This document shows positions 10,983 through 41,994 of a DNA stretch of 59,957 nt, piece after piece. Position 1 is the first letter of the stretch. Each line of letters starts with the position of its first letter. Under the pieces are notes generated by a model. The model worked only from the letters and a program-made list of their open reading frames with translations, was not told the DNA's origin and ran no database searches. A program made the translations under genes and the position numbers. The stretch covers positions 1-59,957 of the forward strand of contig JAFAUR010000176.1 of the NCBI GenBank assembly GCA_019243205.1, read 5' to 3'. Source of the stretch: Acidobacteriaceae bacterium (GTDB taxonomy: Bacteria > Acidobacteriota > Terriglobia > Bryobacterales > Bryobacteraceae).

Positions 10983-11021
10983 ACGGGGCGGCCTTGGAGT
11001 GCCTGATAAAATTGGACTTTC

Positions 11022-12174: not shown

Positions 12175-12187
12175 GGGGAATGAATCC

Positions 12188-14017
12188 TTACAGCCGGCAA
12201 ATCAACAGTTCGCGTTCGTAAATCATCTCCGGCGGGAGGTGATCATGAAGGTCGATGAAAAGTTCTTCGTGGCCGATCACTTCCGATCGCCAGGCAGCGT
12301 GGTCGAATGCCTGCAAAGTGACAAAATCCTCGCGCGAGAAATCGAGTCCGTTCCAATCGATATCCTCGTAGCGAGGCATCCAGCCGATGGGTGTCTCTTT
12401 CGCCGCGCTGCGGCTGCGCGCGCGTTCGGCGATCCATTTCAGCACCCGCATGTTCTGGCCGAAACCGGGCCAGATAAAATTTCCGGCCTCATCCTTGCGG
12501 AACCAGTTTACGTGAAAAATGCGAGGCGTCACGCTCAGCGAGCGCTGCATGGTTAACCAATGGCGAAAGTAGTCGCCCATGTGATAGCCGCAGAAAGGCA
12601 GCATGGCCATGGGATCACGCCGCACCCGACCGAGTGCGCCGGTGGCGGCGGCCGTAGTTTCCGAGCCCATCGTGGCACCAACGTAAACACCCGCGCTCCA
12701 GTTAAATGCCTGGTACACCAGCGGGATGGTAGCTGCGCGACGGCCGCCAAAGATGAAAGCGCTTATCGGGAAGCCATTCGGATTTTCCCAATCGGGATCG
12801 ATGGATGGACACTGGGATGCGGGCGCAGTGAAGCGTGAGTTCGGATGGGCGGCCTTCTTGCCGGTTTTCCGCCCGATCTCGGGAGTCCACACATTGCCCT
12901 GCCAATCGAGGCATTCCGCCGGGGGCTCGGCCGTCAGACCTTCCCACCAGACACCGCGATCCGGGGTCATGGCGACGTTCGTAAAGATCGTGTTCCGCGA
13001 CAAAGTGGCGATCGCGTTCGGATTTGTTTTGGGTGAAGTGCCAGGCGCCACGCCGAAAAAGCCGGCTTCAGGATTGATTGCGCGCAACTCACCGCTTGCG
13101 TCGGGCTTAATCCAGGCGATGTCGTCGCCAACCGTCCAGATTTTCCAACCTTCGAAGCCCGGAGGCGGGATCATCATGGCGAAGTTCGTTTTGCCGCAGG
13201 CGCTGGGGAAAGCGGCGGCAACGTAAGTCTTTTCGCCTGCCGGGTTCTCCACTCCAACGATAAGCATGTGCTCCGCCATCCAGCCTTCGTCACGGGCGAT
13301 ATTGGAGGCGATGCGGAGCGCAAAACACTTCTTCCCGAGCAGCGCGTTCCCACCATAACCCGATCCGTAGGACCAGATCTCACGGGTTTCGGGGAAATGC
13401 ACGATATATTTTTCGCTGTTGCAGGGCCAGGGAACGTCGCGCTGGCCGGGAGCGAGAGGCGCACCCACGCTGTGCATGCACGGGACCACGCGTTTCACAT
13501 CCTTGTCGATCTCGCGAAGGACAGGAAGGCCGATGCGCGCCATGATGCGCATGTTGACGACGACGTATGGCGAATCTGTGAGCTCAACGCCAATCTGCGA
13601 CATCGGCGAGTCGATTGGACCCATGCTAAAAGCGAGCACGTACATGGTGCGCCCGCGCATGCATCCTTTGAACAGCGACTTCAGGGTGCGGCGCATCTCA
13701 AACGGATTTACCCAGTTATTCGTGGGTCCTGCGCTCTCTTTCGAAAGGGAACAGATGAATGTCCGATCTTCTACGCGGGCGACGTCACTCGGGTCGGAGC
13801 GAGCGTAATAGCAGCCTGGCCAGAGGTCCTGATTCAACTTGATGAACGTGCCGCTTTCGACCATTTCGGCGCACAGGGCCTCGTTCTCTTCCTGGGAGCC
13901 GTCAACCCAGTGAATCGCTGCCGGGCGGGTCAGATCGGCCATCTTTTCAACCCAACGGATCAGGTGCTTGTTGGTGCTGAGAGGAATCGCCGAAACGGTG
14001 GACTTAGTTGCGCTCAC
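12188..14017 (-). CDS. pckG: phosphoenolpyruvate carboxykinase (GTP)
   Basis: 609 aa. GTP-PEPCK signatures [26 protein letters not shown] and WFRKD. Confidence 0.95.
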
Positions 14018-23965: not shown

Positions 23966-24721
23966 TTAGTTTACGCATAGTCGCAGTCGGACGCGTGGGA
24001 AAGTGGGAATCTCGCGGTTTGTTCGAGATTTCCAAGGTGCCTGTGGCGCCGTTTTTCCACCGTCTCGTTCGGCCTGGTGGGTACGCAGCAAGTGCGGTCC
24101 CCAACGCACGGACAAGTGGCCATCGAGATGCTCGCATACCATCACGGTGCAGCCGGCCAGCGTGTTGCGAAAACGTGTTTTATCCAACTGCAGGTAGCGG
24201 TTCTGCAGCACAATCGTGTTGTCCTGCGCAACTGTTCGCTCTGTCTGGATCGAGAACACCCAATTCAGATCTTTACGCGTGCACTTGCGGAATGCCGTCC
24301 CTTTCTCAGCCGCTGACTTGGCGAACTTGCGGTTGAACTCCGCCATATATCACTCGCGTAGAAATGGGTTGGCTTGCTCGAGAGTGCTGATTCCCGCCAA
24401 ACGCAGCTCTTGCGGCAACCGGTTCTGCCAGGTTCCGAAGCTACGTTCACAACGCCCCCGCGCTTGCGGCGAGTAGGCAGCGATCATCTGTACGCCGAGT
24501 TCTTTCATCGCTCCGCCCACTTGGGTGAGGCGGTGCGGATCCACCCTCTCGCCCGCCTTGCGCGTCACAAAGAAATGGCTGCCGCGATCGCTGTACAAAG
24601 AGCAGAACAGCCCTTCGGTTTCGATCACCTCGCGCAGCGCACTCATGACCGTGCGCGTGGACTCTTCCTCGACCAACTGTGCGTAGTAGATCTCGCTGGT
24701 GGCGTCATCCAGGATCACCAC
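23966..24721 (-). pseudogene. DDE (rve integrase-core) transposase remnant, ISNCY-like; N-terminally truncated with an in-frame TGA
   Basis: VVILDDATSEIYYAQLVEEEST..LYSDRGSHFF..AYSPQARGRCERSFGTWQNRLPQELRLAGI is an rve core. The mRNA reads CGC GAG TGA TAT ATG (R E stop Y M) with the TGA at 24350-24352. The same frame continues as MAEFNRKFAKSAAEKGTAF... Confidence 0.75.
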
Positions 24722-25080
24722 CGCCAGAGCCTTCGCCACTATTACGCGCTTCACCTCTGGACCAGCGGTGAAGCTGAACCCGAGAAACTTCCGCTCCTGC
24801 CGTCGCGCTACCGCGCTCTTTGCTTCATTCACGTTGAGTTTGAGCTTGTGCGTGATGAACTGCGTAATGCTCTTCATCACGCGCTGACCTGCCCGCTCGC
24901 TGCGAACGTTAGATATCACAATCATCCGCATAGCGAACGAAACGAAGTCCACGGCGCTCCAACTCCCGGTCGAGTGCATCAAGCACAACATTGCTGAGCA
25001 GTGGCGAAAGCGACCACCCTGTGGGGTCCCTTCTACACTTGGGCCGACCAGTCCGTTCTCCATCACTCCCGCCGGACGGT
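24722..25080 (-). pseudogene. group II intron reverse transcriptase remnant, C-terminal half (RT domains ~3-7, start of X), frameshifted
   Basis: AGVMENGLVGPSVEGTPQGG, then in another frame LSPLLSNVVLDALDRELERRGLRFVRYADDCDI, then back to VRSERAGQRVMKSITQFITHKLKLNVNEAKSAVARRQERKFLGFSF. The YADD box and flanks are classic group II intron IEP sequence. Confidence 0.8.
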
Positions 25081-25239
25081 GGGATGCGAAGCTTGGCATC
25101 CCGACGGTGCTGGATCGATTTATCCAGCAAGCGGTGATGCAGGTTCTGCAACGGCGCTCATCAAGCAGTAGCGCAGGCACAGCAGTATGTCGCCGAAGGC
25201 TACGGCTGGCGCGTCGATCTTGATCTGGGGAGGTTTTTC
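25062..25239 (+). pseudogene. group II intron reverse transcriptase remnant, N-terminal part (RT domains ~0-2), on the opposite strand
   Basis: The plus strand reads KLGIPTVLDRFIQQAVMQVLQ (25089-25151). After a frame change and deletion it reads AHQAVAQAQQYVAEGYGWRVDLDLGRFF (25156-25239). These are the conserved RT1/RT2 blocks that should precede the minus-strand half. Confidence 0.7.
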
Positions 25240-25322
25240 CTATGGTGCGACACGGTAGAATCCGACGTCCACGAATCACGATGGCGTCGTTGGATTGCGT
25301 TACAGATGTCCGGCTGACTCCT

Positions 25323-29212: not shown

Positions 29213-30040
29213 TCATGACCCGGTGTTATCAGAGGCGGCAGCTGTTCCCACCAGCAGCATATAGATCGTCGACTCGTTTACGCCATCCAAACCCAGATAG
29301 CGGTCGATCGCCCGATCGTTATAACCGCCGATGTTAGCCGTCACTAAGTTCATTTCCTGCGCGGTCAGATTAGCATTTTGGGAAAGATGCCCTGCCTCAA
29401 ACAACACAAAACGATATCCGCGATCGCCGTATTTGAACGTGGAGCGTGCAAACACAGCCGAGATCATAAGGATTGCCGCGGCGCCGCGTCCTAAATCGCT
29501 CTGAACCATCATGCACGAGATGGTCTCTGATTCGTCGGCGTTTCGGAGAATGTCCAACGCATGGTCTTCGGGATCATAGTGATACAGTCCCGGCTGCAAT
29601 CCATGAACCCGCGTTGCATGTATGTAGATCTCGAGCGGATACAGTGCGCCGCCCGAGGGGATCACCCGAAAGGGCCGAGGATAGCTGGTTCCCGCATTGC
29701 TTCGGTTTACGCCGTAGCTCATCACCAGAATTTTGGCCAGCTGCTCAAGTGGCATAAAGCCCGAACCAAAGCTACGGGCCGTGTGCCTGGTGTGGAGAAC
29801 ATCATCGAAGGACTTGCTGGATGCGGGCAAGCTGGTAGGTAATGCAAGCTTAGGAAAGTCTGCGTATGGTTTCACGCGTCGCAGCATGTTCATGCCCGCA
29901 ACCACGGTGGCGTCGCTGGGCCAAAACTTAAACAGGTGATGCAACTCAACGAAACTCGTCTTAGAGTTTTCGTGGAATAGCTCCCAGTTCGCGTCGTAAT
30001 CGGATTGCAAGAAATGATAATCGAGAGATTCGAAGGCCAT
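29213..30040 (-). CDS. SagB/McbC-type FMN-dependent azoline dehydrogenase (set 1, B1)
   Basis: WELFHENSK N-terminal signature, RVIPSGGALYPLEIY, and FKYGDRGYRFVLFEAGH (Lys-Tyr motif present). Last gene of the RiPP operon. Confidence 0.9.
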   Translation of the reverse strand: MAFESLDYHFLQSDYDANWELFHENSKTSFVELHHLFKFWPSDATVVAGMNMLRRVKPYADFPKLALPTSLPASSKSFDDVLHTRHTARSFGSGFMPLEQLAKILVMSYGVNRSNAGTSYPRPFRVIPSGGALYPLEIYIHATRVHGLQPGLYHYDPEDHALDILRNADESETISCMMVQSDLGRGAAAILMISAVFARSTFKYGDRGYRFVLFEAGHLSQNANLTAQEMNLVTANIGGYNDRAIDRYLGLDGVNESTIYMLLVGTAAASDNTGS

Positions 30041-30046
30041 AGCTGG

Positions 30047-31393
30047 TTATGGAAAAGGATGTGGATACGGGTTATCGGGTTCGTTTCTTGCCAACCCGCG
30101 ATGGCCGAGCTTTCGAGGAACCTCGTAGAGACGGGTGACACCGAGAGCGCGGTTGCGATGCCCCATGTAAAGCGGGTGTGCACCGGGTACGACAACTCTG
30201 ACCACGTGCAGACCGAGCTCGGCGACGTCAGGAGTAGTTAGTTCGACAACGAGCGGTTCGAGGCCGGCGGCAACGGTGTTTTCTACCAATTTGCGAAGCT
30301 GTTCAGAGGGCGAACCCGCAGACAGATCCGGCTCATCGCAGAGATCGATCTGACGAGTGGACGACCAGGCAAATTCGGCGAACGGCTTGGCATATTGCGG
30401 ACAATAGAACCGCAAGTGATCGCGCTGGTCCTTCACGAGAGGATGTCCCCGATCCACTTCGACCGGCAGCGGTGGCGTGTAGCGAAGAAGCTGCCGGGCA
30501 TACATTCGCGTGTGCGCGAGTTCGTCAAGCGATTTCAGTAGACAACGTTCTGGTGAAGGATCCGCAGCCGCCGCAACGGCGACCGCCGGCGATGTTTCCG
30601 CGTTAGAGACGCCGACGGTCATGATGGCCGGAACGCCTATGTCAGTCGTGATGTCCATCAGGTACACCCTGATGCCGACAGCCTCGAATCGCGAGACCAG
30701 GTCACAACCAAAAGCCGGCAGAGTTTCATGGCGAATAACAGGACAACTCATCATCGCCTGCCATGTGATTGTGAACGCGTCACGTTCCAGAACTTCGCAA
30801 AGTCCGGAGATCGTAGCCTCCGCAATCGAACCGCCACAGGCCAATCCCGTCGAGATTGGCTGCAGAATAAAGGCACTGCGAGTTGCCCCGTGGTAATGAA
30901 ACGGGATGTAGACAGCTGCTGCCGGCACGAACACTCGCTCTCCGGTAACCAGCGATCTAGCCGGCGTCCAGTGCACAGGTGTATCGACTGTAAACGGATG
31001 CCAAAGGAAGCCTTCCGACAAATACTGCTCCGGAAGATACATGGTGAGAAGCTCAGGATGTACTGCGCGGAGGTTTAATTCGCGATGGGCCGCGAACCGA
31101 AAACCGGCAGGATCATAGATGGCGCTGCAATAGCGTTCGATGGCTTCACCCATCGCCTTAGCAATGGCGCTGTAGCGGTCTGTTGAGGCTCCACCGTTAT
31201 CACCGAAGTTACGCATTGCGGTGAAGCGAGACGCGTCGCACGCTTTCGAAAAGTAGTGGAAGAAATCGGGATCGTCATCATCGACGGGCAATTCTTCGAT
31301 CCGTTGAATGATCCCTACTTTCGGGTCGACCAATTGATCCCAAAGCCCAACTATTTGTTCCAGCCGTGCGCGGCTCCGGGTGCTCAGCGGCAT
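30047..31393 (-). CDS. YcaO-domain cyclodehydratase (set 1, D1)
   Basis: Canonical MGEAIERYCS and CEVLERDAF motifs. Pro-rich C-terminus NPYPHPFP. Confidence 0.9.
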   Translation of the reverse strand: MPLSTRSRARLEQIVGLWDQLVDPKVGIIQRIEELPVDDDDPDFFHYFSKACDASRFTAMRNFGDNGGASTDRYSAIAKAMGEAIERYCSAIYDPAGFRFAAHRELNLRAVHPELLTMYLPEQYLSEGFLWHPFTVDTPVHWTPARSLVTGERVFVPAAAVYIPFHYHGATRSAFILQPISTGLACGGSIAEATISGLCEVLERDAFTITWQAMMSCPVIRHETLPAFGCDLVSRFEAVGIRVYLMDITTDIGVPAIMTVGVSNAETSPAVAVAAAADPSPERCLLKSLDELAHTRMYARQLLRYTPPLPVEVDRGHPLVKDQRDHLRFYCPQYAKPFAEFAWSSTRQIDLCDEPDLSAGSPSEQLRKLVENTVAAGLEPLVVELTTPDVAELGLHVVRVVVPGAHPLYMGHRNRALGVTRLYEVPRKLGHRGLARNEPDNPYPHPFP

Positions 31394-31414
31394 GCAGACA
31401 ATTCCCGGGCGCGC

Positions 31415-32476
31415 TTATTCATGCGGAATCAGACTGCCGACAATCAGCGCCCGGGAAGCTTTTCGCATGATCTCGCCACAATCCGGACAGCGTGGGATCT
31501 TCAGTATACGGCGAACGGTGGAAGAGAATGAAAACAGATTCAGTTCGATGCTCCGGCCGGCTGTATCTGGCGGCGGGTACCCAGCAATGAATTTCACAAC
31601 CTCAATGGCCGCGATCTCGCCGAGCGCAGAGGCCATGGGAGGAAGCAGTCCCGCGGAAACCATGCTGCCCGGATTGGCGCTTGCGTGACGCCGAAGCGCT
31701 CGCCCGGCGGCATAGTTCGGATTGTTGGATTCCCTTCTCAAGAAGTAGCAGCGGAGACAGGCATTTTCATACGGGTGATTGAGAGGTCCCACATAGCCGA
31801 GCAGGTCCGCCTGCCAAACGGGAAGGAACGGCTTCTCGATTCTCAATGCGGTTCGGCTAAACTCGAGCAGCGCATCGCCTTGATCGAAGTCACTCGTTGC
31901 ACAGATAACCGAGCATTCTGACAGTTCTCCGTCGGAGGACAATTCGGGCACGCGTCGCAGGCGGTCTTCGCCCGGTTGGAATCCAACCGGTGCTACCTCG
32001 TTGTTCAAATTAGTGTCATCCACCAGCGTGATCCTGCCAATGCCCGATTCCAGGAGGCTGCGCAGCATCGCTCGCGCTATCAAAGTAACTCCTGCAACCA
32101 CAACATGCGCGTTCCCGAGCCGCTGTGGAGCATTGCGACCCTCCTCGCCCATGTTCCACCAGAATGCCGTTTGAAGTGACTCGAGGCTTGCCTCGTTGAC
32201 GTCCGGCCCCGGCTCTTCTGTGATGAGCCTCCGAAGCTGCATCGTGGTCAGCAAGTTGCCGACTTCGCCACGCAAATGTTCCGGAAAGCTATCCACAATG
32301 TCTTCGGGCGTACGGCTCCCATCGAACTGTTGGATGAGCGACTCGAGGATAGAGTGCACCTGAGCGCCACTAACTACCAGCTCATTGACGCCGCGCTTCA
32401 GAACCGCAGTATCATCAGAAACCCGGACGTATCGAAGATCGGTGCCGTACACTTTGTCCTCTCTGATTTTTGGCAT
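31415..32476 (-). CDS. TOMM cyclodehydratase C protein / E1-like leader-peptide-binding partner (set 1, C1)
   Basis: N-terminal RRE-like VLKRGVNELVVSGAQVHSILESLIQQFDGSRTPEDIV. Cys pairs CLRC ... CPDC. Adjacent to the YcaO gene. Confidence 0.85.
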   Translation of the reverse strand: MPKIREDKVYGTDLRYVRVSDDTAVLKRGVNELVVSGAQVHSILESLIQQFDGSRTPEDIVDSFPEHLRGEVGNLLTTMQLRRLITEEPGPDVNEASLESLQTAFWWNMGEEGRNAPQRLGNAHVVVAGVTLIARAMLRSLLESGIGRITLVDDTNLNNEVAPVGFQPGEDRLRRVPELSSDGELSECSVICATSDFDQGDALLEFSRTALRIEKPFLPVWQADLLGYVGPLNHPYENACLRCYFLRRESNNPNYAAGRALRRHASANPGSMVSAGLLPPMASALGEIAAIEVVKFIAGYPPPDTAGRSIELNLFSFSSTVRRILKIPRCPDCGEIMRKASRALIVGSLIPHE

Positions 32477-32511
32477 GCCGGCGTAATTGCTTGGTGAGCA
32501 ATCGCGCCGGC
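32477..32511 (-). promoter_or_regulatory. RNA stem-loop between the precursor gene and C1, ending at nucleotide -1 of the C1 start codon
   Basis: The mRNA sense reads GCCGGCG-CG-ATTGCT-CACCA-AGCAAT-TA-CGCCGGC followed directly by ATG. This gives 7 + 6 bp of stem around a 2x2 internal mismatch and a 5-nt loop, with no U-tract. Confidence 0.5.
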
Positions 32512-32531
32512 AAATTTATATTCCGGTAGCG

Positions 32532-32921
32532 TTATACGGCGAGGGGATCGACCTGCACCGCGGCTGAACAACAGGAGCAGCAGGGAGTACAGCAGCAGCA
32601 ACAGCTATCGCCTAATGCCTTAACATTCTGTGGAGTGTGGACACTAGTAAGCTTGTTTACTCCCTGGAAATTCGCGATCACCTGATATCGATAATCGGCA
32701 AAGAGACCGTCAATGGTAACCAGGTCGTGTGTAGTCAGCGCATTCACCTTGGGATTTTCCACAGGAGCAGGCGGCACACCAAAGGCCATCGCCATATCTG
32801 CAAAGTCGGCCGGGGTCATGCTGCGGACTGTGTGTGAGGTTTTGAAGCTGTCCAGTTTCTCTGCGGGAAAGATTTCCTCAACAGAGAACCGTTTCTTGTC
32901 TCCACCAGGTGGAGGATTCAT
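32532..32921 (-). CDS. RiPP precursor peptide with Cys/Ser/Thr-saturated core
   Basis: 129 aa. AGGAG lies 7 nt upstream of the ATG. The C-terminal region reads ..KALGD SCCCCCTPCCSCCS AAVQVDPLAV. It sits between two cyclodehydratase/dehydrogenase sets. Confidence 0.8.
   Translation of the reverse strand: MNPPPGGDKKRFSVEEIFPAEKLDSFKTSHTVRSMTPADFADMAMAFGVPPAPVENPKVNALTTHDLVTIDGLFADYRYQVIANFQGVNKLTSVHTPQNVKALGDSCCCCCTPCCSCCSAAVQVDPLAV
32565..32606 (-). other. predicted core-peptide segment SCCCCCTPCCSCCS (codons 106-119 of the precursor)
   Basis: The mRNA reads AGC TGT TGC TGC TGC TGT ACT CCC TGC TGC TCC TGT TGT TCA. Confidence 0.7.
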
Positions 32922-32936
32922 CTTTACTCTCCTTTC

Positions 32937-33779
32937 TCATAACGTTGTTACTTCCGCTACGCGGCCCTGCCGGCCGCCCCTTTCATGCGCACCAGCTTTG
33001 CCCACCGCTACGATGAAAATCGTGGATGCGGTGAGTCCGTCGAGCGCAAGAAAATCGTCTATTGCCGGGTCAAAGTATTCACCGGTGTTCACGCAGGACA
33101 ATCGAAGAGACCCTGCAATCAGGTTCAGATTGCGGACGACTGCGCCGGCTTCCTGATGTACAAACCGATAACCGCGATCTCTATATCGCAAAACAGAACG
33201 CTCCGGCACAGCTGAGATCAAAACGATCAAGGCGGCCGAGAGCGCGACACGCCCATCTATCAATGCGGCGGCGATCTTCTGCGATTGATCACCGGAACGC
33301 AACAGTCGCAGTGAATTGCCGGGTGGGTAATAGTGATAAAGACCACGTTCGAGGCCCGCGATGCTCGCGTTGTGAACAAAAAGTTCGAGTGGATAAGATG
33401 AATTTTCAGAATGAACAGCCCGGCGCTGGCGCGCGCTGTCCGGATCCGGACGCCGTTCCATAATGCCGTAGCTGTAGTGCAACAGCGCCGCCGCCGCGTC
33501 TAGCGGGACTGTGATCGGTTCCAGTTCGGTAACCACCGCGTTACGCGCGAGCGCTTCCTGTAAAGGCTCCGATCCCAGGGCCGCAGGGTTCGGCAGTTTG
33601 ATCTCCGGGTAGCTCTCGAATCTCAGCGATTCCAGTATCTGCTTCTGATAGAAAGCCGTCACTTCTGCAGGCAGGATGCCGTCGTTCGAAAACAATTTTG
33701 AATTCTCATGGAAAAGCTCCCACGGCGAGTCATGCTCGGGTAACGGCGTCGTCAGGAGCTCCCAAGTTGTCGAAATCAC
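32937..33779 (-). CDS. SagB/McbC-type dehydrogenase paralogue (set 2, B2), divergent
   Basis: WELFHENSK signature and DRGYRFVHQEAG are present. However, B2 has LRY where B1 has FKY, and HSENSSYP where B1 has PSGGALYP. Its GTG start overlaps the D2 stop (GTGA). Confidence 0.85.
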   Translation of the reverse strand: MISTTWELLTTPLPEHDSPWELFHENSKLFSNDGILPAEVTAFYQKQILESLRFESYPEIKLPNPAALGSEPLQEALARNAVVTELEPITVPLDAAAALLHYSYGIMERRPDPDSARQRRAVHSENSSYPLELFVHNASIAGLERGLYHYYPPGNSLRLLRSGDQSQKIAAALIDGRVALSAALIVLISAVPERSVLRYRDRGYRFVHQEAGAVVRNLNLIAGSLRLSCVNTGEYFDPAIDDFLALDGLTASTIFIVAVGKAGAHERGGRQGRVAEVTTL

Positions 33780-35101
33780 GACATCACTCCTTTTCGTGGG
33801 AAAGGATGGGGCAACGGATTATCTCCGGTCTCTGGCCTAATGCCGCCGAGGCTCAGCCCTTGCGGAACTTCCCACAACCGGCACCCTCCTAAAGCGCGTG
33901 AACGGTAGCCGAAGAACAGTGGATGCAGACCCGGAATGATGGCACGGATAACTGTCAGCTCGAGGTCTGCGACGTCTGATGTCGTCAGGTTTGCAAGTAC
34001 TGTGTAATAACCAGCCGCCTCGATATTGTTGAGAAGCTTTTGAAGATCGCGACCCGGATATCCGGTAGATAAATCCTCTAACTGGTCGAATTCGATTCGT
34101 TCGCGCGACGAGAATACAAAATCGGCTTGTGCGGAGTTCCGCGGATCGGACCAGAACCGCAAATGCTCACTCTGATCACGAACGCTTTGCGGATCTCGAT
34201 ATCCACAATCCTGCGCTCTCAACAGCTGGCAATACTGATGAACGTGAGCAAGCATTTCGAGGCTTTTACGGACTCCATTTTCCGGAGTCAAACTGGTTCC
34301 GGCTGCAAAGGTCCGGGCTGGCGCTCCCGGGCGAGAATCTGACAGCACTGCAAGAATGCTGGGTATTCCGAGGTCGAACTCAACCTTGAAGAGCGTGACC
34401 GAAGCACCAGTACTTTCAAATCGCGTCACAAGCTCATAATTGGCGTCGCTCAAGGTCTCCACTCGGATTTGTGGCATGCTCAGCCTCGCCTGCCAAAGCA
34501 GCGCAAGAGCATCACATTCGATCACATCGCAAATTGCCTCTGTCGCTGCGCAAGCGGCAATCCAGTGGCAGGCAAGACCGGTTGAAGTGGGCGGCATAAT
34601 CGGCGCCTCGTCAAACCCGAGGACGGCGGGAGCGGTCAGGAATCGCATCGCGGAAGGAATAAAAACAGATGCCTCTGTTACCGGGTTTACGGCTTCGCTC
34701 CACTGAACCGGTGTGTGTCGACTAAAAGCGACCCAGGGGAAATCGGGCTGCGTATACTGTTCCTCGCTAAACAAGGCGAAATCTTCGGGAACAACACAAG
34801 GAAAAGGCGCGCCGTGGGCTGGGCCAATCGGATGCTTGCCATCTTCCTCCGAGATCAGCGCCGCGCAATACGAGGCGATGCCGTCGAGAACCACGCGTGT
34901 CACAGCACTCTTCCGATCTGCCCCGGCTGCCCCGCCCGGTCCCGGAATCGCGTACTCGCTAAATGCGCGCGTGCTGCACGGGTGAACCACGTAGTGGAAA
35001 AATGATGGAGCGCCTGGCGCAAGACGCATCTCCGCTACTGAGCTGAGCACGCCCACCTCATTATCGACTAACTTGTCGATCAGCTGCGTGATTCCGTTCA
35101 T
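33776..35101 (-). CDS. YcaO-domain protein paralogue (set 2, D2), with substituted acidic motifs
   Basis: It aligns by eye with D1 along its length and has the Pro-rich C-terminus NPLPHPFP. The motifs read VLDGIASYCAA and CDVIECDAL. The start is taken at MNGITQ, which forms an ATGA overlap with the C2 stop. Confidence 0.85.
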   Translation of the reverse strand: MNGITQLIDKLVDNEVGVLSSVAEMRLAPGAPSFFHYVVHPCSTRAFSEYAIPGPGGAAGADRKSAVTRVVLDGIASYCAALISEEDGKHPIGPAHGAPFPCVVPEDFALFSEEQYTQPDFPWVAFSRHTPVQWSEAVNPVTEASVFIPSAMRFLTAPAVLGFDEAPIMPPTSTGLACHWIAACAATEAICDVIECDALALLWQARLSMPQIRVETLSDANYELVTRFESTGASVTLFKVEFDLGIPSILAVLSDSRPGAPARTFAAGTSLTPENGVRKSLEMLAHVHQYCQLLRAQDCGYRDPQSVRDQSEHLRFWSDPRNSAQADFVFSSRERIEFDQLEDLSTGYPGRDLQKLLNNIEAAGYYTVLANLTTSDVADLELTVIRAIIPGLHPLFFGYRSRALGGCRLWEVPQGLSLGGIRPETGDNPLPHPFPRKGVMS

Positions 35102-36171
35102 TGGCCCTCTTCTGTTCTTGGCATCGATAAAGATGCGCGCGTCAAAGCTGTAGAGGGAGTCCGGTTGAGGCGGGAACAAACGGGACAACGCGGGACCTTT
35201 AGGACCTGCAGCGGTTTCATCTCGCTGCCAAGCAAGTTGACTTTGATCAGAGTCCCCGGCCTCGCGATGCTGCCGCCAATGCCAAAGTATTTCGTAATCT
35301 CGAGGGCAGCAATGTCACCGAGAATGGTTGCCATGGAAGGATGAAATCCGCCGATAGCCTGCTTATGAATGAAGGCGGCTTCCACTGCTCGTCGGCTTTG
35401 AAAGTCGAGCAAATGCGCATTCTGCCGGAGCCGGACGCATTCGAAACAGGGGGTTTGACCGGGCACAACAATCGGACCGACATACCCGACGAGGTCCTGA
35501 AGCATCACGGGTACGAACTGCAGGTTGTGGAGCACGCAAAATTCATTCCATAACCGCATTTGTTCGACGCCGCCGCTGTCGGAAGTGGCGATAACACAGT
35601 CGAGAGTATCCGGATCAAGATCTTCAGCGTATTCACTTACAGGGGCAGACCATTCCCGCATCCGAAGAGCACCGCCGTCATCAAACAGAGCTTCATTACG
35701 AAGCAATGGTTGGTCGATGACCTCAAGCTCTTCAGCGCCCGATGCTCGCAGACCGGCTATGAGCTGACGCGAAATATAGTTTACGCCTGTTATCTTGATG
35801 CGCTTCGCATTTAATCTCTCGCGGACCTGCGCAGTTTGTGTACCGAAGTGCCAATAGAAAACCTCGAGCTGCGATTCAGAGGTGCGCCCATCGGCCGCCG
35901 GTGTCTCCTCGCTCACGAGGATCGACCGGCTCAGCAGATGATCAATCAAGGCTTCAGCACCCGCGACTTCGCCCGCTGGGAAGAGCGCGACGAGTTCGTC
36001 ACGGGTTGCGCCATTGCGGGCGCAATCGAGCAGGCGGCCTACCGCGTCTGCGGCTCCGGTTCCGGCGATCCTCAGTTCGACTCGTCCGCGCTTGAGTACG
36101 AGAGCGTCCCCTGTGTCGATCAGGTTTACCGGGAGGACCCGAAGCTTTTCGGATTGGAGTTCCAGTTTCAT
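35098..36171 (-). CDS. TOMM cyclodehydratase C protein / E1-like partner (set 2, C2)
   Basis: RRE-like LVLKRGRVELRIAGTGAADAVGRLLDCARNGATRDELV. Cys pairs CFEC ... CPVC. ATGA overlap with the upstream radical SAM stop. Confidence 0.85.
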   Translation of the reverse strand: MKLELQSEKLRVLPVNLIDTGDALVLKRGRVELRIAGTGAADAVGRLLDCARNGATRDELVALFPAGEVAGAEALIDHLLSRSILVSEETPAADGRTSESQLEVFYWHFGTQTAQVRERLNAKRIKITGVNYISRQLIAGLRASGAEELEVIDQPLLRNEALFDDGGALRMREWSAPVSEYAEDLDPDTLDCVIATSDSGGVEQMRLWNEFCVLHNLQFVPVMLQDLVGYVGPIVVPGQTPCFECVRLRQNAHLLDFQSRRAVEAAFIHKQAIGGFHPSMATILGDIAALEITKYFGIGGSIARPGTLIKVNLLGSEMKPLQVLKVPRCPVCSRLNRTPSTALTRASLSMPRTEEGQ

Positions 36172-37547
36172 GCGTTCAGGATCGGGAACTCACAACTGGG
36201 CTGCGGGGGAGCAGGTTGAAATGTGCGCTCGGCTTCTACCATCGTCAACGCGCTTGGGCGATGCGGCGCATACACGCCTCCAAAAACCCGATACAGGTCT
36301 TGATACTCGTGTTCAAAGACACTCTTCGGCAAGGCGGTTTGTGTGACTGGGTGCTGCAGATCAAATAATTCCCAGTTAGGCCTCCCGTTGGGCTGGCGCT
36401 CCGTTATGGCATCGAACGTATCGAGCGCTTCGGTTCCCGGCAGCGGCGTCAAAACCGTGAACGATGGATAATCGACCCGGTTGTGCTCAATAAAGCGGAT
36501 TAACTGCTTGAAGCAGCGCTTGGTGTAATTGGTGTTCACTATGAACCCGCCAAACACATGTATGCCCAATTGTTTCGCTGCCCGAAGGCCGTTCTCTATC
36601 TGCGCTACGTCGAGCCGTTTGTTGTACTCCTTCAGTTCGTTCGCGGTTACCGCTTCAATGCCAATGAATAGCCGTTCCAGGCCGATTTCAGCCCACATGG
36701 CCATCAACTGTGGTTGGCGCAGAAGTGTATCGATGCGGCAGTACGTGAAGTAGCGTTTGCGGATTCCCGCAGCCCTGATAGCCTGGGCAAGCAGCGTCAT
36801 CCGCTTGCCATTTATAAAAGCCTCGTCATCTACCAGGAAAATCGATTGTTCTTGAACAGAGGCGATCTCCGCAACTACACGGTCGACATCACGCATGTGA
36901 TAACGGCCATCTTGGATCTTCCAAAGCGAGCAGAAGGAGCAGCGATACGGGCATCCAACCGTTGTGCGCAGTAGTGCGATTGGTTTCATCCAATCGATGA
37001 AATAACTTTGGCGGTCCGGACCGGCAATGAAACGATTTGGCGAGGGAAGTTGATCGATGTTGTACGAGAGAGGGTTACCGCCGTCGACGAACTCGTCGCC
37101 TGTGCGCGCCCAGACACCGGGGATGGTCTCCGGAATACCGCGTTCCAAGCCACGCAGGATCGCGCGAAACGGATGAACTCCTTCCCCTCGGACAACAAAA
37201 TCGAACTGAGGCAGGAAGAAATCCTCCGGAAGCAGCGTGGCGTGATGCCCGCCAACGACTACCCGGCATGCCGGCAAGAGCCCCTTGATTCGCTTTGCGA
37301 TCGCGATGTTACGCAGGACGTGCATGCTGTACCCGGTGAGAGCTGCAACATCGGGCCGATATTGGGTCAAGGTGGAGTCGAGATCATTCGGGTGCAGCCG
37401 TAAATCGAGAAGCCGGACATCATGGCCATCGAGTTCCGCGCCCGCTGCCAAATATTCCAGAGCAAGCGGTTCAGCTACGGCGCCCAGATCTCCGTACCCA
37501 ATGATCTCCTTGCGCAGACTGGGATACAAAAGAAGAACTCTCAACAC
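36168..37547 (-). CDS. B12-binding-domain radical SAM enzyme (class B, putative methyltransferase) #2
   Basis: N-terminal B12-binding-like VLLLYPS..LEYLAAGAELDGHDVRLLDL. Radical SAM cluster motif GCPYRCSFCSLW. The start is taken at the GTG at 37547, overlapping the methyltransferase stop; the ORF extends to 37637. Confidence 0.85.
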   Translation of the reverse strand: MLRVLLLYPSLRKEIIGYGDLGAVAEPLALEYLAAGAELDGHDVRLLDLRLHPNDLDSTLTQYRPDVAALTGYSMHVLRNIAIAKRIKGLLPACRVVVGGHHATLLPEDFFLPQFDFVVRGEGVHPFRAILRGLERGIPETIPGVWARTGDEFVDGGNPLSYNIDQLPSPNRFIAGPDRQSYFIDWMKPIALLRTTVGCPYRCSFCSLWKIQDGRYHMRDVDRVVAEIASVQEQSIFLVDDEAFINGKRMTLLAQAIRAAGIRKRYFTYCRIDTLLRQPQLMAMWAEIGLERLFIGIEAVTANELKEYNKRLDVAQIENGLRAAKQLGIHVFGGFIVNTNYTKRCFKQLIRFIEHNRVDYPSFTVLTPLPGTEALDTFDAITERQPNGRPNWELFDLQHPVTQTALPKSVFEHEYQDLYRVFGGVYAPHRPSALTMVEAERTFQPAPPQPSCEFPILNA

Positions 37548-38377
37548 GCCCCCTGCCTCTGTTCCTCTCTGTGCGCAGTGACCATGAAGCTGTGCGGCAC
37601 GTCCTTGAGCGTTCGCGGCAAAACCGGATAGGGCCAACGTCCTTGGCCTGCTCCAGGTTCTCCGGGAGACGTTACATGAGCTGACCAGCCGAGCAAACGA
37701 AGCAGTCCCTCGGGGTCATCAGTAGCCGAAAGCCAAGGTGTCCCGTTCTTAGCGAGGGAGTCCAGCGCTGTTCTCATCCAGGGACTTGTCAGGAAAGAAC
37801 GGCTAATGAAATCCGCCGCGAGAGCGCTGCCAGGCGCGCTGTCTTCCGATAAACGAGCGAGTATCTCCGCTACAGCGTTCTCTTGTAAGTAATAGAACAG
37901 ACCCTCAGCAATCCAGAGAGAGGGCGCGTTAGCTCGAAATCCAGCAGCCCGAAGCGCGCTGGTCCACGAGCCTTCCAGATCCGTGCCTACCGCGACTCTG
38001 CGACACAGGGCTGGAGAATCCCTGCCCAGGATTCTGTTCTTAACCTTGAGCAACTCGGGATCATCGAGTTCAAAGACAGTTGTACTCGCCGGCCACTCCA
38101 GCCGGAGTGCGCGAGTGTCCATTCCTGCTGCCACGAGTACCACCTGTCGAATGCCGTCGTTCGCTACGGAGACAGCGAATTCATCGAAGAAGCGCGTGCG
38201 GATCGCTATATAGGGGCCCACATCCGGCATGCCACGCTCGGGCGAGCGAAGCATTTTGAACCCTTCCTCTCCCGCCAGGGATCGCGCGAAGGGATCTGTG
38301 AAAAGACGATCGGGACGTTCCGATTCCAGAGCCCGAATCGCAGCTGTCATCAGAGCGGTATGTGCGACCTTTCTCAA
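37541..38377 (-). CDS. class I SAM-dependent methyltransferase, leucine carboxyl methyltransferase (LCMT / TIGR00027-like) family
   Basis: TALMTAAIRALES..LFTDPFA, VLVAAGMDTRALRL and VFELDDPELLKVK are typical of this O-methyltransferase family. Confidence 0.85.
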   Translation of the reverse strand: MRKVAHTALMTAAIRALESERPDRLFTDPFARSLAGEEGFKMLRSPERGMPDVGPYIAIRTRFFDEFAVSVANDGIRQVVLVAAGMDTRALRLEWPASTTVFELDDPELLKVKNRILGRDSPALCRRVAVGTDLEGSWTSALRAAGFRANAPSLWIAEGLFYYLQENAVAEILARLSEDSAPGSALAADFISRSFLTSPWMRTALDSLAKNGTPWLSATDDPEGLLRLLGWSAHVTSPGEPGAGQGRWPYPVLPRTLKDVPHSFMVTAHREEQRQGAC

Positions 38378-38587
38378 GACGTCGATTCGCCCTGATAAAA
38401 CTTCCCAATAGACAACGGGAGTGTTGAGGTTGAACCTGCGTCGAACTGTCCCGCAGACATACTTTTCCGCAAACCTTCGAGAGGGGATCAGTATGACATA
38501 GCGGAAGCGTTTCGAAAAGCTATTTTTTTATTTTTATGAATATGAACTCATTGTGAGTTTCTTCGCTGAGCTTTCTAATACTTCCGG
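38378..38587 (-). promoter_or_regulatory. AT-rich 210-bp intergenic gap inside the cluster (candidate internal promoter)
   Basis: This is the only sizeable non-coding gap between 32.5 and 42.0 kb. It contains the A/T tract CTATTTTTTTATTTTTATGAATATGAA. I could not identify a convincing -35/-10 pair. Confidence 0.25.
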
Positions 38588-40252
38588 TTATGCACGCGGC
38601 AGCGGTGGCGATTTACGGCTCAAAATTTCGTGTAACGCAGCGAACTCGGGTGCCGCGCGAATAGCGCTCGCGGATACATCCTTACCCAAAAAGCGATTGA
38701 AAGCGCTTACGCCGAGGCGCACATCGTCAACAGAGAAACCATTTGCGTACAACAAAAACTCCGTCCAAGCCTCGCCGCGCACAGCATTATGAACGGCGTA
38801 CCTCTGCTCTTCCGCCACTTTTCTGGCAAGTACTTGCGCGGTTCGCGAATCCATGGTGTTGTGTTTCCAGTCCATACCCATACCCTCGATACCGAATTCC
38901 ACCGCACGGGCTCCCACCGGTGTGGATGGAATGTAGACCCACGTGCAGACCGTGCAGAACGGAAGCTGCATCTCGTCCAGGAAACTTACAATCTTCCAGG
39001 CCGAATCTTCCGTCTCTCCCGGATAACCCACGATGAAGTTCGCATGAACCTCAATGCCGTATTTGCGTAGGTGGTCAATACCGCGCTTGTACTGCTGTAC
39101 CTGGGCGACCTTGTTCATGTTTTTCAGAATCCGATTGTCAGCGGATTCCAACCCGGCAAAAACCGCCCGGCAGTGCGATTCCTTCATCAGCCGGGCTGTC
39201 TCTTCGTCCGCATATTGCGGACGAAAAAAGGAATACCATTCGAAATCGAACTTGGCCAATACTTTGAGTAACTGTTTGAAACGGCCAAGCGGCACGTTGA
39301 AGGTATCGTCCGTAAAAATCAGGGAGCGCACCGAGCCCAGCTTGCGCAGTTCCTGCAGCTCCCGATCTACAACCTCCACCGGTGTCAACGTGAGCGGTCC
39401 CTGATTAACCGGGTATTCACAAAAGGCGCACTTGAACGCACAGCTTCGCGCGGTGCGTATGTGAACGGTGTGATACAGGTGATCCGTTTGCGGTAATCGG
39501 CTCCAGTGAATGAATGGTTCGTCCGTCTGGAAGGGCGGCTCCGGCGCGTCCGGGGGTGGGATGACGCTGCGGCCACAACGTATGTAGGTACGGGGAATGC
39601 TCGGGTCCGTGATGAGCGCCTGGAGCGAGGACCGTCGAAGTATCTCAAGTAAGGGCACTTCGCCGCGCGGGCTCACAACGTACAGATCCGCGCCATAGGA
39701 TTGCAATTGTGAAAGAAAAATTGGGCGAGGAAGATTTTTCTCGTAACTTACAAGCATTAAGCCCCCGAGAACGATCAGCGCATCTGGCCACTCTTTGCGG
39801 ATTTGGGCGATCGCAAGGGGAATGGTTTCTCTCTCGGCGGCGTCGAAGAGAAGCGTAGTGGAAAGCAGAATGAATCGGGGCTTGTATTCGCACCCGAGGG
39901 CGCTCAAGCGCTCGCGGTTAACCGAGTTAGCGACGCGCACCTTGAACCCGTGGCGCGAAAGCACGTCAAGGTAGTAACTGCCCGCAAGCAGGGTTAGGTT
40001 GAACGGATCATAGCGTTCATGCTCCCGGGTCGAGCCCGTTTTGACCCAGCTTAGGAATCGGCTAAAGTCATACAGCTTTCCGTCGATGACAAGGTCCACC
40101 TCATCCTTCATGAACAATTCATCGGATAATGCGGCGTGAATCCCGCGCGTTCGCGCCATGGACGGCCGCTCGTAGTCGAGATCTGTATCGTTGTGCCACC
40201 GATCCTCGTTGGCATAGAAAGGAATGAACAGCGCGTCCAGAGTCTCAGGCAT
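38588..40252 (-). CDS. B12-binding-domain radical SAM enzyme (class B) #1
   Basis: 554 aa. Radical SAM motif ARSCAFKCAFCEYP preceded by a Rossmann-like B12-binding-type region (RFILLSTTLLFD..LIVLGG). The start overlaps the hydrolase stop by 8 nt (ATGCCTGA). Confidence 0.85.
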   Translation of the reverse strand: MPETLDALFIPFYANEDRWHNDTDLDYERPSMARTRGIHAALSDELFMKDEVDLVIDGKLYDFSRFLSWVKTGSTREHERYDPFNLTLLAGSYYLDVLSRHGFKVRVANSVNRERLSALGCEYKPRFILLSTTLLFDAAERETIPLAIAQIRKEWPDALIVLGGLMLVSYEKNLPRPIFLSQLQSYGADLYVVSPRGEVPLLEILRRSSLQALITDPSIPRTYIRCGRSVIPPPDAPEPPFQTDEPFIHWSRLPQTDHLYHTVHIRTARSCAFKCAFCEYPVNQGPLTLTPVEVVDRELQELRKLGSVRSLIFTDDTFNVPLGRFKQLLKVLAKFDFEWYSFFRPQYADEETARLMKESHCRAVFAGLESADNRILKNMNKVAQVQQYKRGIDHLRKYGIEVHANFIVGYPGETEDSAWKIVSFLDEMQLPFCTVCTWVYIPSTPVGARAVEFGIEGMGMDWKHNTMDSRTAQVLARKVAEEQRYAVHNAVRGEAWTEFLLYANGFSVDDVRLGVSAFNRFLGKDVSASAIRAAPEFAALHEILSRKSPPLPRA

Positions 40253-41075
40253 ATGCTTCGAGTTTTCGGCTGTGCGCCGTCCAGTGTTCCTCGAGGATGT
40301 TATGTACCGCTCGGGGGTCCTCCAGCAGACAGAGGTGTCCCAAAGACGGAAGGTAACGGCGCTCGCAGTTTGGAAGGTATCGCCGAATCAACTCCCCACA
40401 GCGTTTGAAAGCAGGAAGCTCGTTGTCTCCCACTAATACGAGAGTGGGTGTCGGAGAGTTACGCAGCTGCTCAACGCTCTGACGATGATTACTGAGGCGT
40501 CCATAAGATCCATCTTGCAGTTCCCACCAAGGATGCTTTCCAACCAATCCCCACAATCTGTTCCACAATGCCGGATGGGCTTCGGCCCCTTTGAAGATAT
40601 TTGGCGGCGATTGCATCCAGAGCCGTCGAAGTTCAGGCGTAAAGCCTTCGCGACGGTAGATGGCGGCTAGCTCCTCATAACGCGCGCCCACGTCACTATC
40701 CTGCGGACCGCCCCCGAGTGCGGGGGCTCCCAACGTCAAAGACCGAAAGGAATCCGGAAACTCGATAATGATCTGAAGCCCGAGCAGCGTACCGAATGAG
40801 AGTGCCGCGATGTGCTCGATACCTCTCGCCAGTGCCGAACGTGCAACTCGCCGCGCAAGTGAAGGCAGATTCTCAGACGCAGGCAGCGGCAACGAGTAGC
40901 CGTGTCCTGGAAGATCGATGCCCGTGTGATCCCAATCCGGAAGCAGTTCCCAAAGCTCCGACCAAGCGCTCGAATCTATGGTGTAGCCATGCAGCCAAAG
41001 GACCTTGTCCCGCTTGCCCGGCGAGACACGGGCGACAAGATCCCTATCGAACAGAACAAGTGGCGTGTGCTTCAT
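40245..41075 (-). CDS. alpha/beta-fold hydrolase
   Basis: VLWLHGYT..DLPGHGYS oxyanion region, nucleophile elbow AALSFGT, C-terminal LGHLCLLEDP His. The start is taken at MKHTPL; the ORF extends to 41126. It overlaps the Rieske gene 3' end by about 32 nt. Confidence 0.8.
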   Translation of the reverse strand: MKHTPLVLFDRDLVARVSPGKRDKVLWLHGYTIDSSAWSELWELLPDWDHTGIDLPGHGYSLPLPASENLPSLARRVARSALARGIEHIAALSFGTLLGLQIIIEFPDSFRSLTLGAPALGGGPQDSDVGARYEELAAIYRREGFTPELRRLWMQSPPNIFKGAEAHPALWNRLWGLVGKHPWWELQDGSYGRLSNHRQSVEQLRNSPTPTLVLVGDNELPAFKRCGELIRRYLPNCERRYLPSLGHLCLLEDPRAVHNILEEHWTAHSRKLEAYA

Positions 41076-41994
41076 TGGCCGCGGACTCTTCGTCTTCGAA
41101 GCGCATACAGAATTTCTGGAAGGCAAGGATCAGGTCGTCTTCCGGGGTTAGCCGATTCGGCGCATCGTGGATGCGATTTTCCCAGATCACCAGATCTTGT
41201 TCATAAGCAAGTTTGCTGTCGCGCAGAAGAGCACGGATGGCTTGCTGCGAAGGCGGGCTGCCATCCTCAGTAGCGGGCGCCGCAACAGACACGCGGATGG
41301 TACAGCTGCCGTTGCCGTTCGGCGTAGATCCGGAGATCACCGTATTTTCACCCAACCGGCTGACGCACACATTTGGACTAATCACTTGAGCAAGAAATTG
41401 CATTTCCGTGCCTGCATCCTGCACCGCGCCATTGTGCCAGGCTGTTTCGAATGCCTCCGCGTAGAACGTGCCGGAAAGATGTAATTCGCCGCTGTCCCCG
41501 GGACTCAGCTTGAGATTCGGGCGGCGTTTGAGACGATGCACGGATTGAAAGTGCGCCGGGTCAAAGCCATTCTCTACGACGAGTTCAGCCGGAGCTTGTG
41601 CGGTCATAGTAAACCCAGGCACTAAGTAATGTGTTGCGTTCAGCTCTTCGAGCAGACGGGTGAGCCCGTTCTCATGCCGCTCGGACAAGAGGACGAACAA
41701 TAGACCGCCAACGGCTAGTGTGCGGTAACGGGGCGTTTTAAATTGACAGTCGGAATCTGAACCGAGGCCGATGCGGTAACCATGGAACGGACAGATGATT
41801 GCGCCTCTGTCCAGCGTGCCGCCGAAGGCCAGATGAGCTCCTCGGTGCGGGCATGTTGCATTGTACGCGCCAAACTCATTTTCCTGCTTGACTAACAGAA
41901 GCCGAAGGTTGCCAATACGAAGCGGTGTGACTTTATCGCGAATCTCTCTTTCGAATCCGACCTGGTACCAACCGCGATAGAGATGCTGAGGCAT
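41044..41994 (-). CDS. Rieske [2Fe-2S] non-heme iron oxygenase
   Basis: CPHRGAHL-x17-CPFHGYRI Rieske motif. Mononuclear iron motif ENGFDPAHFQSVH (E-x3-D-x2-H-x4-H). GGGAGGA RBS upstream of the ATG. Confidence 0.85.
   Translation of the reverse strand: MPQHLYRGWYQVGFEREIRDKVTPLRIGNLRLLLVKQENEFGAYNATCPHRGAHLAFGGTLDRGAIICPFHGYRIGLGSDSDCQFKTPRYRTLAVGGLLFVLLSERHENGLTRLLEELNATHYLVPGFTMTAQAPAELVVENGFDPAHFQSVHRLKRRPNLKLSPGDSGELHLSGTFYAEAFETAWHNGAVQDAGTEMQFLAQVISPNVCVSRLGENTVISGSTPNGNGSCTIRVSVAAPATEDGSPPSQQAIRALLRDSKLAYEQDLVIWENRIHDAPNRLTPEDDLILAFQKFCMRFEDEESAANEAHATCSVR

Follow-up and report, generated by a model that had tools for sequence, protein, structure and literature searches.

Putative tailoring genes of an azole-forming peptide cluster in an Acidobacteriaceae bacterium and their distribution among related loci

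A gene cluster in a 59,957-nucleotide stretch from an Acidobacteriaceae bacterium (GenBank assembly GCA_019243205.1, contig JAFAUR010000176.1; the whole stretch is referred to as the window) carries two sets of genes for azole formation and a gene for a Cys-rich precursor peptide. Every long open reading frame (ORF) across positions 29213-41994 lies on the minus strand, and five of them, which fill positions 36168-41994, were assigned to a Rieske non-haem iron oxygenase, an alpha/beta hydrolase (ABH), a methyltransferase of the LCM family and two radical S-adenosylmethionine (SAM) enzymes, rSAM554 and rSAM489. Do these five genes belong to the peptide pathway, and what might their products do to the peptide? 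We give a probability of about 0.7 to the reading that all five are tailoring genes of a thiazole/oxazole-modified microcin (TOMM) or linear azole-containing peptide (LAP) cluster, in three layers to which reactions can be assigned. That the genes are part of the peptide pathway is the firmer component and is, in our view, highly likely; the specific reaction types, which are predicted from sequence, have about an even chance of being right.

Linkage of the five genes to the azole-forming genes

Downstream of the five genes and on the same strand, two complete C/D/B sets flank a precursor of 129 residues; TIGR03603/TIGR03882 match their C proteins, TIGR03604 their D proteins and TIGR03605 their B proteins. 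By every criterion applied, the cluster at about 29213-41994 is of the TOMM/LAP type, and azole formation is predicted. Related loci (numbered L001 onwards) were gathered by a profile scan for rSAM554, with one genome per species, and by tblastn with all window proteins. More than 100 full-length homologues of rSAM554 exist, with identities of 42-75%. Loci L001 and L003, in which rSAM554 is 75% and 74% identical, hold all 13 genes, laid out as LCM-Rieske-ABH-rSAM554 convergent with rSAM489-C-D-B-precursor-C-D-B, and the order C-D-B-precursor-C-D-B is shared by these two loci and by L088, L089, L093 and L095. The position of Rieske-ABH-rSAM554 varies: in the window it lies upstream and in L089 downstream, on the same strand in each case, and in L093 it is downstream and convergent. 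In L006 (59% identity), ABH-rSAM554 stands beside a split C/D/B cluster and an rSAM489 orthologue. The same pair lies near two fused YcaOs of 750 residues, a ThcOx-type dehydrogenase, a second ABH and a C39-ABC exporter in the Gemmatimonadales loci L004/L005 (65%), and it adjoins two such fused YcaOs and a ThcOx-type dehydrogenase in L004, L010 and L011 (Gemmatimonadales, Vicinamibacteria and Acidobacteriota). L010 and L011 also hold rSAM489 orthologues and precursors of the NHLP type; no rSAM489 orthologue and no precursor were found in L004.

Wherever rSAM554 is at least 59% identical, an ABH gene is directly upstream, and azole-forming genes lie within 10 kb in all such loci except L009, a contig of 6.3 kb. 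No locus at or below 54% identity has TOMM genes (among them L012, L028, about 20 loci from Planctomycetota and actinobacterial loci at 31-38%, including Kitasatospora phosalacinea at 32%). Because the distant relatives (38-54%, mostly from Planctomycetota) have a second ORF of about 570 residues in place of the upstream ABH, we regard them as a different context. Four loci (L117, L118, L138 and L154) have Rieske-ABH after C-D-B and lack rSAM554.

A profile scan of metagenomes for rSAM489 gave 80 loci with identities of 50-99%. Among the 59 with usable flanks, TOMM genes were present in 43, and a C gene was directly downstream in 31. Most of the remaining 16 are contigs no longer than 5 kb or share the convergent arrangement of L096; two of those without TOMM genes, L098 and L099, are probably contig truncations of the L096-type layout, and L151 is the one long exception. 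Homologues of the LCM-family gene were seen in clusters only in the window, L087, L001/L002 and L003; in L087 the protein is 83% identical and the order LCM-rSAM489-C1 is that of the window. The genes that flank the cluster in the window (molybdopterin oxidoreductase, amylase and carboxylesterase) are conserved in no related locus.

The five genes thus form three evolutionary layers: rSAM489 is one of the conserved core genes of the family, Rieske-ABH, whether or not joined by rSAM554, is a module that is optional and can move, and the LCM-family gene occurs in the closest relatives only. A preliminary description of this DNA had treated the five genes as one tailoring block that belongs with the C/D/B system, and had named as decisive whether the upstream sub-operon (38588-41994) is co-conserved with the C/D/B genes in related genomes. 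Since the five genes recur beside C/D/B in several orders and orientations, as a rearranged set in L001, L003, L089 and L093 and in part in L006, L004, L010 and L011, that co-conservation is present and the assignment to the C/D/B system stands; the single block gives way to the three layers.

A protein of 700-790 residues is encoded between SagB and Rieske in L117 (14651-16999), L138 (7054-9306), L154 (6522-8888) and L099 (2889-4988), and is missing from the window; the two that were scanned (L117 and L099) gave only weak TPR matches, and the protein is possibly regulatory or a scaffold. A C39-ABC exporter (L005) and a C70/C39-like peptidase (L006) are found nearby, and a large ORF in L118 (8106-10535) may encode a secreted metalloprotease, which it resembles by appearance. 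Among the distant rSAM554 relatives (38-48%), tandem pairs of ORFs of about 570 residues occur in L008 (8268-11704) and in the Planctomycetota loci L013-L027. In L008 both are radical SAM proteins and lie amid genes of the acyl-ACP or lipid type (AMP-ligase, ACP, KAS III and MBOAT); such a pair may be an unrelated, uncharacterised lipid-modifying system.

Identity of the enzymes and their candidate reactions

All five annotations in the preliminary description were borne out by Pfam and NCBIfam, the cobalamin (B12) label of rSAM554 indirectly. The gene for rSAM489 is at 36168-37547 (minus strand) and encodes about 459 residues from a homologue-supported start at GTG 37547 or TTG 37544; its name comes from the length of the ORF, 489 residues, which reaches 37637. 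The protein matches the B12-binding domain PF02310 (E 9.7e-20) and PF04055, and C229/C233/C236 are invariant in 6 sequences. Its best curated family is HpnR (TIGR04367; 238 bits, cut-off 650). A role as the HpnR hopanoid C-3 methylase was considered and rejected, with this score below the cut-off, a C-D-B context and no hopanoid genes. The score against TIGR03975, the RiPP (peptide synthesised on ribosomes and modified post-translationally) maturation radical SAM C-methyltransferase family, was 48.1 bits, also below the cut-off (281.85). Judged by its distribution, beside C-D-B in most related loci and always together with precursors of the invariant C-C-x-C-[T/S/C]-P-C-C core, rSAM489 can be regarded as the signature enzyme of the cluster family.

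The second enzyme, rSAM554 (38588-40252, minus strand, 554 residues), is PhpK-like: its best curated family is the cobalamin-dependent PhpK (TIGR04479; E 1e-102, 344 bits, cut-off 600), in an alignment of nearly full length. A look-up of its exact sequence gave no recorded contig. The motif C271-x3-C275-x2-C278 is invariant in 12 sequences and PF04055 is matched. Alignment with hhalign placed residues 92-447 of rSAM554 onto residues 48-393 of rSAM489, covering the B12 domain, with a probability of 99.4. In a Foldseek search with an AlphaFold (AF2) model of rSAM554 (pLDDT 77.6, pTM 0.81), the best match was TsrM, and further top matches were MgmA, CysS, TokK, OxsB and AprD4. A class-B, that is B12-type, architecture is therefore supported for rSAM554 by the hhalign result, the PhpK-family alignment and the fold matches of the model, and the case is weaker than that for rSAM489. 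AprD4 has a B12-like domain and is not known to bind cobalamin. As with HpnR, a role as a PhpK-type P-methyltransferase was rejected, given the score of 344 below 600, the YcaO/TOMM context and no phosphinate pathway. TIGR03975 was matched at 30.8 bits, again below 281.85. Both radical SAM enzymes are distant in sequence from the class-B enzymes of solved structure; because they score 22-27 bits against TsrM, and E 1e-5 to 1e-6 against TIGR04428, neither is a TsrM orthologue.

The Rieske gene (41044-41994, minus strand, 316 residues) is the first of the Rieske-ABH-rSAM554 module. Its product matches PF00355 (E 3.5e-13) and KshA_C (PF19298), both above the cut-off, and the cluster ligands C48-P-H50 and C68-P-F-H71, together with the iron-site residues D145, H148, H153 and D267, do not vary among 8 homologues linked to clusters. 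Among solved structures, KshA and the saxitoxin hydroxylases SxtT/SxtDIOX come closest, both as weak matches. The ABH gene (40245-41075, minus strand, 276 residues) has a homologue-supported ATG at 41075, in an ORF that reaches TTG 41126; the protein matches Abhydrolase_6 and Abhydrolase_1. Ser110, in an L-S-F-G elbow, is kept in 11 of 11 sequences, the His in 9 of 11, and Asp or Glu in a G-x-x-[DE] motif in all. Esterases (65 bits), ABHD6, BioH and MenH are its closest solved structures, and BotH is matched at 25 bits over the N-terminal third only. With the Ser/His/acid triad retained, a BotH-like epimerase was rejected.

The LCM-family gene (37541-38377, minus strand) encodes a SAM-dependent methyltransferase of 278 residues that matches PF04072 with 173.6 bits (cut-off 22.3) and TIGR00027 with 227.8 bits (cut-off 93.55); its closest solved structures, ML2640 and Rv0731c, are uncharacterised mycobacterial methyltransferases. 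The gene is present where the precursor tail has D-P-L (the window, L001 and L003) and was not seen with Asn or Gln at that place (INPL in L089, TQPF in L088). This hints, weakly, that the enzyme may act on the Asp of the tail.

These gene identities, the intact catalytic motifs and the linkage to the RiPP core genes are observed; every chemical step and every substrate in the scheme that follows is predicted. The two C/D/B sets would turn most of the core Cys, Ser and Thr residues into azoles. During or after this heterocyclisation, rSAM489 would most likely C-methylate a position inside the invariant core, either the proline or an azole or its precursor carbon. The Rieske oxygenase would most likely hydroxylate the peptide, ABH would most likely cleave an ester or amide (in the leader, a follower or an intermediate), and rSAM554 would most likely add a further methyl group in the lineage of the window. 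The LCM-family enzyme would most likely O-methylate a carboxylate of the tail, on the Asp of D-P-L or at the C-terminus.

The nearest curated families of both radical SAM enzymes are methyltransferases, HpnR acting at C-3 of hopanoids and PhpK in P-methylation, and the class-B enzymes that a review lists for RiPP pathways, PoyB/C, BotRMT1-3 and TsrM, are C-methyltransferases (PMC11285071). Methylation of unactivated carbons is plausible, and C-methylation is most probable for rSAM489 because of its nearest curated family, HpnR, and this precedent. As to where the radical SAM enzymes might methylate, the preliminary description had listed the core proline, the thiazole C5 or beta-carbons and the Val, Ala and Leu residues of the tail. 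The proline (Pro113 of the 129-residue precursor, as had been stated) and the azole-forming residues are invariant and stay as candidates; the tail residues are unlikely targets of these two enzymes, because the tail-less loci L010 and L011 keep orthologues of both rSAM554 and rSAM489. The invariant core, proline included, is thus the favoured target region. In L010, from Vicinamibacteria (9-1004, 10001-11653 and 11676-12971), an NHLP precursor whose core is no more than ...GSCCCTPCCSC is accompanied by two ABH genes and by three radical SAM genes of class-B type, namely rSAM554 and a pair of rSAM489 paralogues.

The precursor family and the organisation of the locus

The precursor gene of the window (32532-32921, minus strand) was read as a translated ORF of 129 residues with the core ...GDSCCCCCTPCCSCCSAAVQVDPLAV. 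A search of all loci for reading frames rich in Cys yielded about 48 different genuine cores, all of which have [T/S/C]-P-C-C inside C-C-x-C-[T/S/C]-P-C-C-[C/S]. This common core is carried by at least four types of leader: the window type (126-129 residues, not NHLP); an NHLP-clan type that ends in AGG (L010, L011, L126, L128, L133, L134 and L159); a twin-arginine (Tat) type of about 170 residues with a textbook motif, such as DRRGFLRTAGATTAG in L108; and an 'FDFGxVFNQVK' type found as tandem copies (L116 and L118). Precursors other than the NHLP type have a tail of the form [A/T]-A-[A/S]-x-x-x-P..., and those of the NHLP type end at the Cys motif with no tail (...GSCCCTPCCSC and ...GSCCCSPCCCC in L010 and L011). 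In NCBIfam no model recognised the window, Tat or FDFG types, and the NHLP type weakly matched NHLP-clan models.

Tat-motif precursors were found in L108 (9401-9901), L113 (5079-5828), L119 (6795-7337), L139 (1027-1569), L155 (111-710), L161 (2111-3168) and L104 (823-1374). The motif is followed by a hydrophobic stretch, as in DRRGFLRTAGATTAG and NRRKFMMGAAAGTAAAA, which suggests that a modified product of about 150 residues, be it peptide or protein, may be exported by the Tat route. Genes for Rieske, ABH and rSAM554 occur in none of these seven loci. Two tandem precursors with near-identical cores are encoded in L116 (193-1573), L118 (485-1624), L155 (2-710), L161 (2111-3168) and L134 (1357-2031); the window has a single one. 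In all 8 precursors of the rSAM554-bearing clusters (the window, L001, L003, L006, L010, L011, L089 and L093), a Gly stands 1-3 residues ahead of the first Cys (GDSC, GAAC, GSSC, SGC, IGSC, VGSC), and it is absent from 8 precursors of long loci without rSAM554 (L095, L108, L113, L117-L119, L138 and L154), which have VSC, ISC, TAC or similar. The sample is small and its loci are phylogenetically non-independent, and this correlation is weak, as is the one between the tail Asp and the LCM-family gene.

In the order of transcription, the cluster reads Rieske, ABH, rSAM554, an intergenic gap, LCM, rSAM489, C1 (35098-36171), YcaO1 (33776-35188), SagB1 (32937-33779), the precursor, C2 (31415-32476), YcaO2 (30047-31393) and SagB2 (29213-30040), the C, YcaO and SagB genes, all on the minus strand, having been assigned by Pfam and NCBIfam. 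The Rieske ATG at 41994 is preceded by GGAGG at a distance of 7 nt. Initiation of ABH at ATG 41075 produces an overlap of 32 nt with the end of the Rieske gene, and the ATG of rSAM554 overlaps the ABH stop codon by 8 nt in ATGCCTGA; both overlaps are identical in L001. The LCM stop codon abuts the start of rSAM489. With these likely start codons the genes would be tightly coupled, rSAM489 to LCM at the level of translation. Read directly from the sequence, the gap between rSAM554 and LCM (38378-38587) is 210 nt long, the only sizeable intergenic space within the cluster, and of very high AT content (...TTCATATTCATAAAAATAAAAAAATAGC...), against a GC content of about 56% for the genome. A promoter internal to the cluster, or a region that regulates LCM-rSAM489, is likely to lie here, and the gap is a probable border between two transcription units. 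A weak terminator-like hairpin lies within it at 38420-38403; a scan for sigma-70 promoters and terminators did no better than on shuffled sequence, and an Rfam scan of the window found no cobalamin riboswitch and no RNA of any kind.

No immunity gene and no regulator were found within 29213-41994. The cluster is flanked in the window by a molybdopterin oxidoreductase, an amylase, a carboxylesterase and insertion sequence remnants, and beyond these by genes of housekeeping or carbohydrate metabolism. A few kb downstream, past the amylase and carboxylesterase genes, degenerate transposase/integrase ORFs at 23966-25279 (with a weak rve match at 24350-25279) may mark a former insertion boundary.

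Alternative explanations and relation to known systems

Several observations weigh against the tailoring scheme. The AT-rich gap splits Rieske-ABH-rSAM554 off from the rest of the cluster, and Rieske, ABH and rSAM554 were all unseen in L095, L108, L113, L119, L141, L155 and L166, despite several kb of flank. Pfam and NCBIfam scans of 29213-41994 found no reductase or ferredoxin partner for the Rieske oxygenase, which may be supplied from elsewhere in the genome, and no protease or transporter. Both radical SAM enzymes are well under every curated family cut-off, which weakens the assignment of reaction types; rSAM554 has in Pfam a Radical_SAM match only and no match to a B12-binding domain, and AprD4, a diol dehydratase, is among its top fold matches. 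When the cores were checked against the presence of Rieske and ABH, no core residue was found to track any accessory enzyme clearly. Finally, the related loci are phylogenetically non-independent samples.

The low family scores leave room for one or both radical SAM enzymes to act in the peptide pathway other than as methyltransferases, by C-C or C-S cross-linking, epimerisation, ring rearrangement or a dehydration-type reaction. Other families were also matched (BchE, a cyclase; HpnJ; ApyD; and AprD4, which came fifth in the fold search with rSAM554), and L010 has three such enzymes for a Cys-rich motif of 9 residues. We nevertheless consider this unlikely: the best curated families are methyltransferases by large margins (344 against 98 bits and 238 against 112 bits), the top fold match is the methyltransferase TsrM, MgmA, CysS and TokK are all methylases, and so are, on carbon, all class-B enzymes that the review describes for RiPP pathways (PMC11285071). 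The optional and mobile character of the module relative to the core, its tight overlaps and the gap that sets it off as a unit of its own, and the occurrence of distant rSAM554 relatives in small-molecule or lipid contexts (L008 and the PhpK family) could also mean that Rieske-ABH-rSAM554, in some loci with LCM, makes and attaches a separate small-molecule side group. The pathways to the quinaldic and indolic acid units of thiopeptides have a B12 radical SAM enzyme, ABH-fold enzymes and a methyltransferase. Against this, the conserved gene set showed neither an adenylating enzyme nor a carrier protein or an aminotransferase, and three or four genes seem too few to build and attach such a group, so that we hold it to be very unlikely.

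Positions 38588-41994 could even be a neighbouring pathway unrelated to the peptide, for example of lipid, phosphonate-like or aromatic modification; the gap, the non-RiPP contexts of rSAM554 relatives at or below 54% identity and the many family members without the module would fit. However, in all loci of at least 59% identity bar the short contig L009 the module is beside azole-forming genes, in at least five arrangements, with two heterocyclase architectures and in several phyla, true flanks are never conserved, and Rieske-ABH follows C-D-B also where rSAM554 is missing (L117, L118, L138 and L154). This synteny leads us to reject chance adjacency of the upstream sub-operon, and an unrelated pathway appears highly improbable. 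The remaining alternative is a mechanism like that of bottromycin, with a stand-alone YcaO that forms a macroamidine, a BotH-type epimerase and, at the end, O-methylation of Asp. The resemblance of the gene lists, to which the preliminary description had drawn attention, is real: two YcaOs, several B12-type radical SAM enzymes, a carboxyl-type methyltransferase, an ABH-fold protein and an oxidase are set beside BotC/BotCD, BotRMT1-3, BotOMT, BotH and BotCYP, and the tail of the window type has an Asp within a C-terminal extension, as in bottromycin, where BotOMT methylates the Asp side chain (PMC11285071). The parallel does not reach the mechanism. Each YcaO has its own C protein and SagB dehydrogenase, ABH is esterase-like with its triad kept, the oxidase is a Rieske enzyme and not a P450, and the radical SAM enzymes are nearest to PhpK and HpnR and score under the TIGR03975 cut-off. 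The topology of core and leader is reversed, with the core C-terminal behind a leader of about 105 residues, and the tail is missing in NHLP-type members that keep both radical SAM enzymes. No peptidase of the BotP or BotAH type is present, M17 peptidase, amidohydrolase and P450 being absent from the cluster. A bottromycin-like mechanism is scarcely credible on these grounds.

With tailoring of an azole peptide retained as our reading, how does the cluster compare with known systems? It shares with LAP/TOMM clusters of the microcin B17, plantazolicin and streptolysin S type the split C (E1-like), D (YcaO) and B (SagB) proteins and a long leader followed by a Cys/Ser/Thr-rich core. It differs from them in the duplicated C/D/B set, in the C-C-x-C-[TSC]-P-C-C core that is invariant across many lineages and leader types, in the B12-binding radical SAM neighbour present in most loci and in the optional module with Rieske, ABH and a second radical SAM enzyme. 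As in proteusins and other NHLP RiPPs (polytheonamide, with PoyB/PoyC, and the azole-containing nostatin A), some members combine NHLP leaders that end in GG with B12-type radical SAM enzymes, whereas the leader of the window is not NHLP, neither of its radical SAM enzymes reaches TIGR03975, and the cores are almost purely Cys. PhpK and HpnR align over nearly the full length with rSAM554 and rSAM489 and have the same domain order, but the window enzymes score at roughly half the family cut-offs or less and stand in a RiPP context. If they were to methylate C5 of thiazoles, TbtI, PbtM2/M3 and NosN would be functional analogues; these thiazole C-methyltransferases of thiopeptides are, however, class C (HemN-like) enzymes (PMC11285071), and those of the window have a predicted class-B architecture.

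In the literature searched, which did not cover subscription journals, we found no paper with the core motif and none that joined Rieske, YcaO and RiPP, or NHLP, cobalamin and YcaO, or a cobalamin radical SAM enzyme and azoles. The cluster is apparently a member of an undescribed family that is widespread in soil bacteria. More tentatively, and with somewhat less than even confidence, we propose a large, undescribed class of azole-rich peptides in Acidobacteriota, Gemmatimonadota and further bacteria from soil and fresh water. It would be defined by the C-C-x-C-[T/S/C]-P-C-C core and by an HpnR-like cobalamin radical SAM enzyme with chemistry new to linear azole peptides, such as a class-B reaction that methylates the core proline or C5 of a thiazole, and its optional module would include the first Rieske oxygenase of a YcaO RiPP pathway. 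Because the common core is found on at least four unrelated types of leader, some with twin-arginine export signals, the modified motif may be a portable functional unit, for instance a polyazole that binds a metal or a target, rather than one antibiotic scaffold.

If these proposals hold, the core motif and the signature radical SAM enzyme would mark a RiPP family that is widespread and simple to recognise, in phyla that are difficult to cultivate and whose chemistry has been little explored. The family would offer specific candidates for novel class-B radical SAM reactions on peptides rich in azoles, and Rieske oxygenases would join the tailoring enzymes of RiPPs. The layering of the genes, with an obligatory radical SAM enzyme, an optional module of three genes and a lineage-specific methyltransferase, points to minimal gene sets for these peptides and to the order in which genes may be added.

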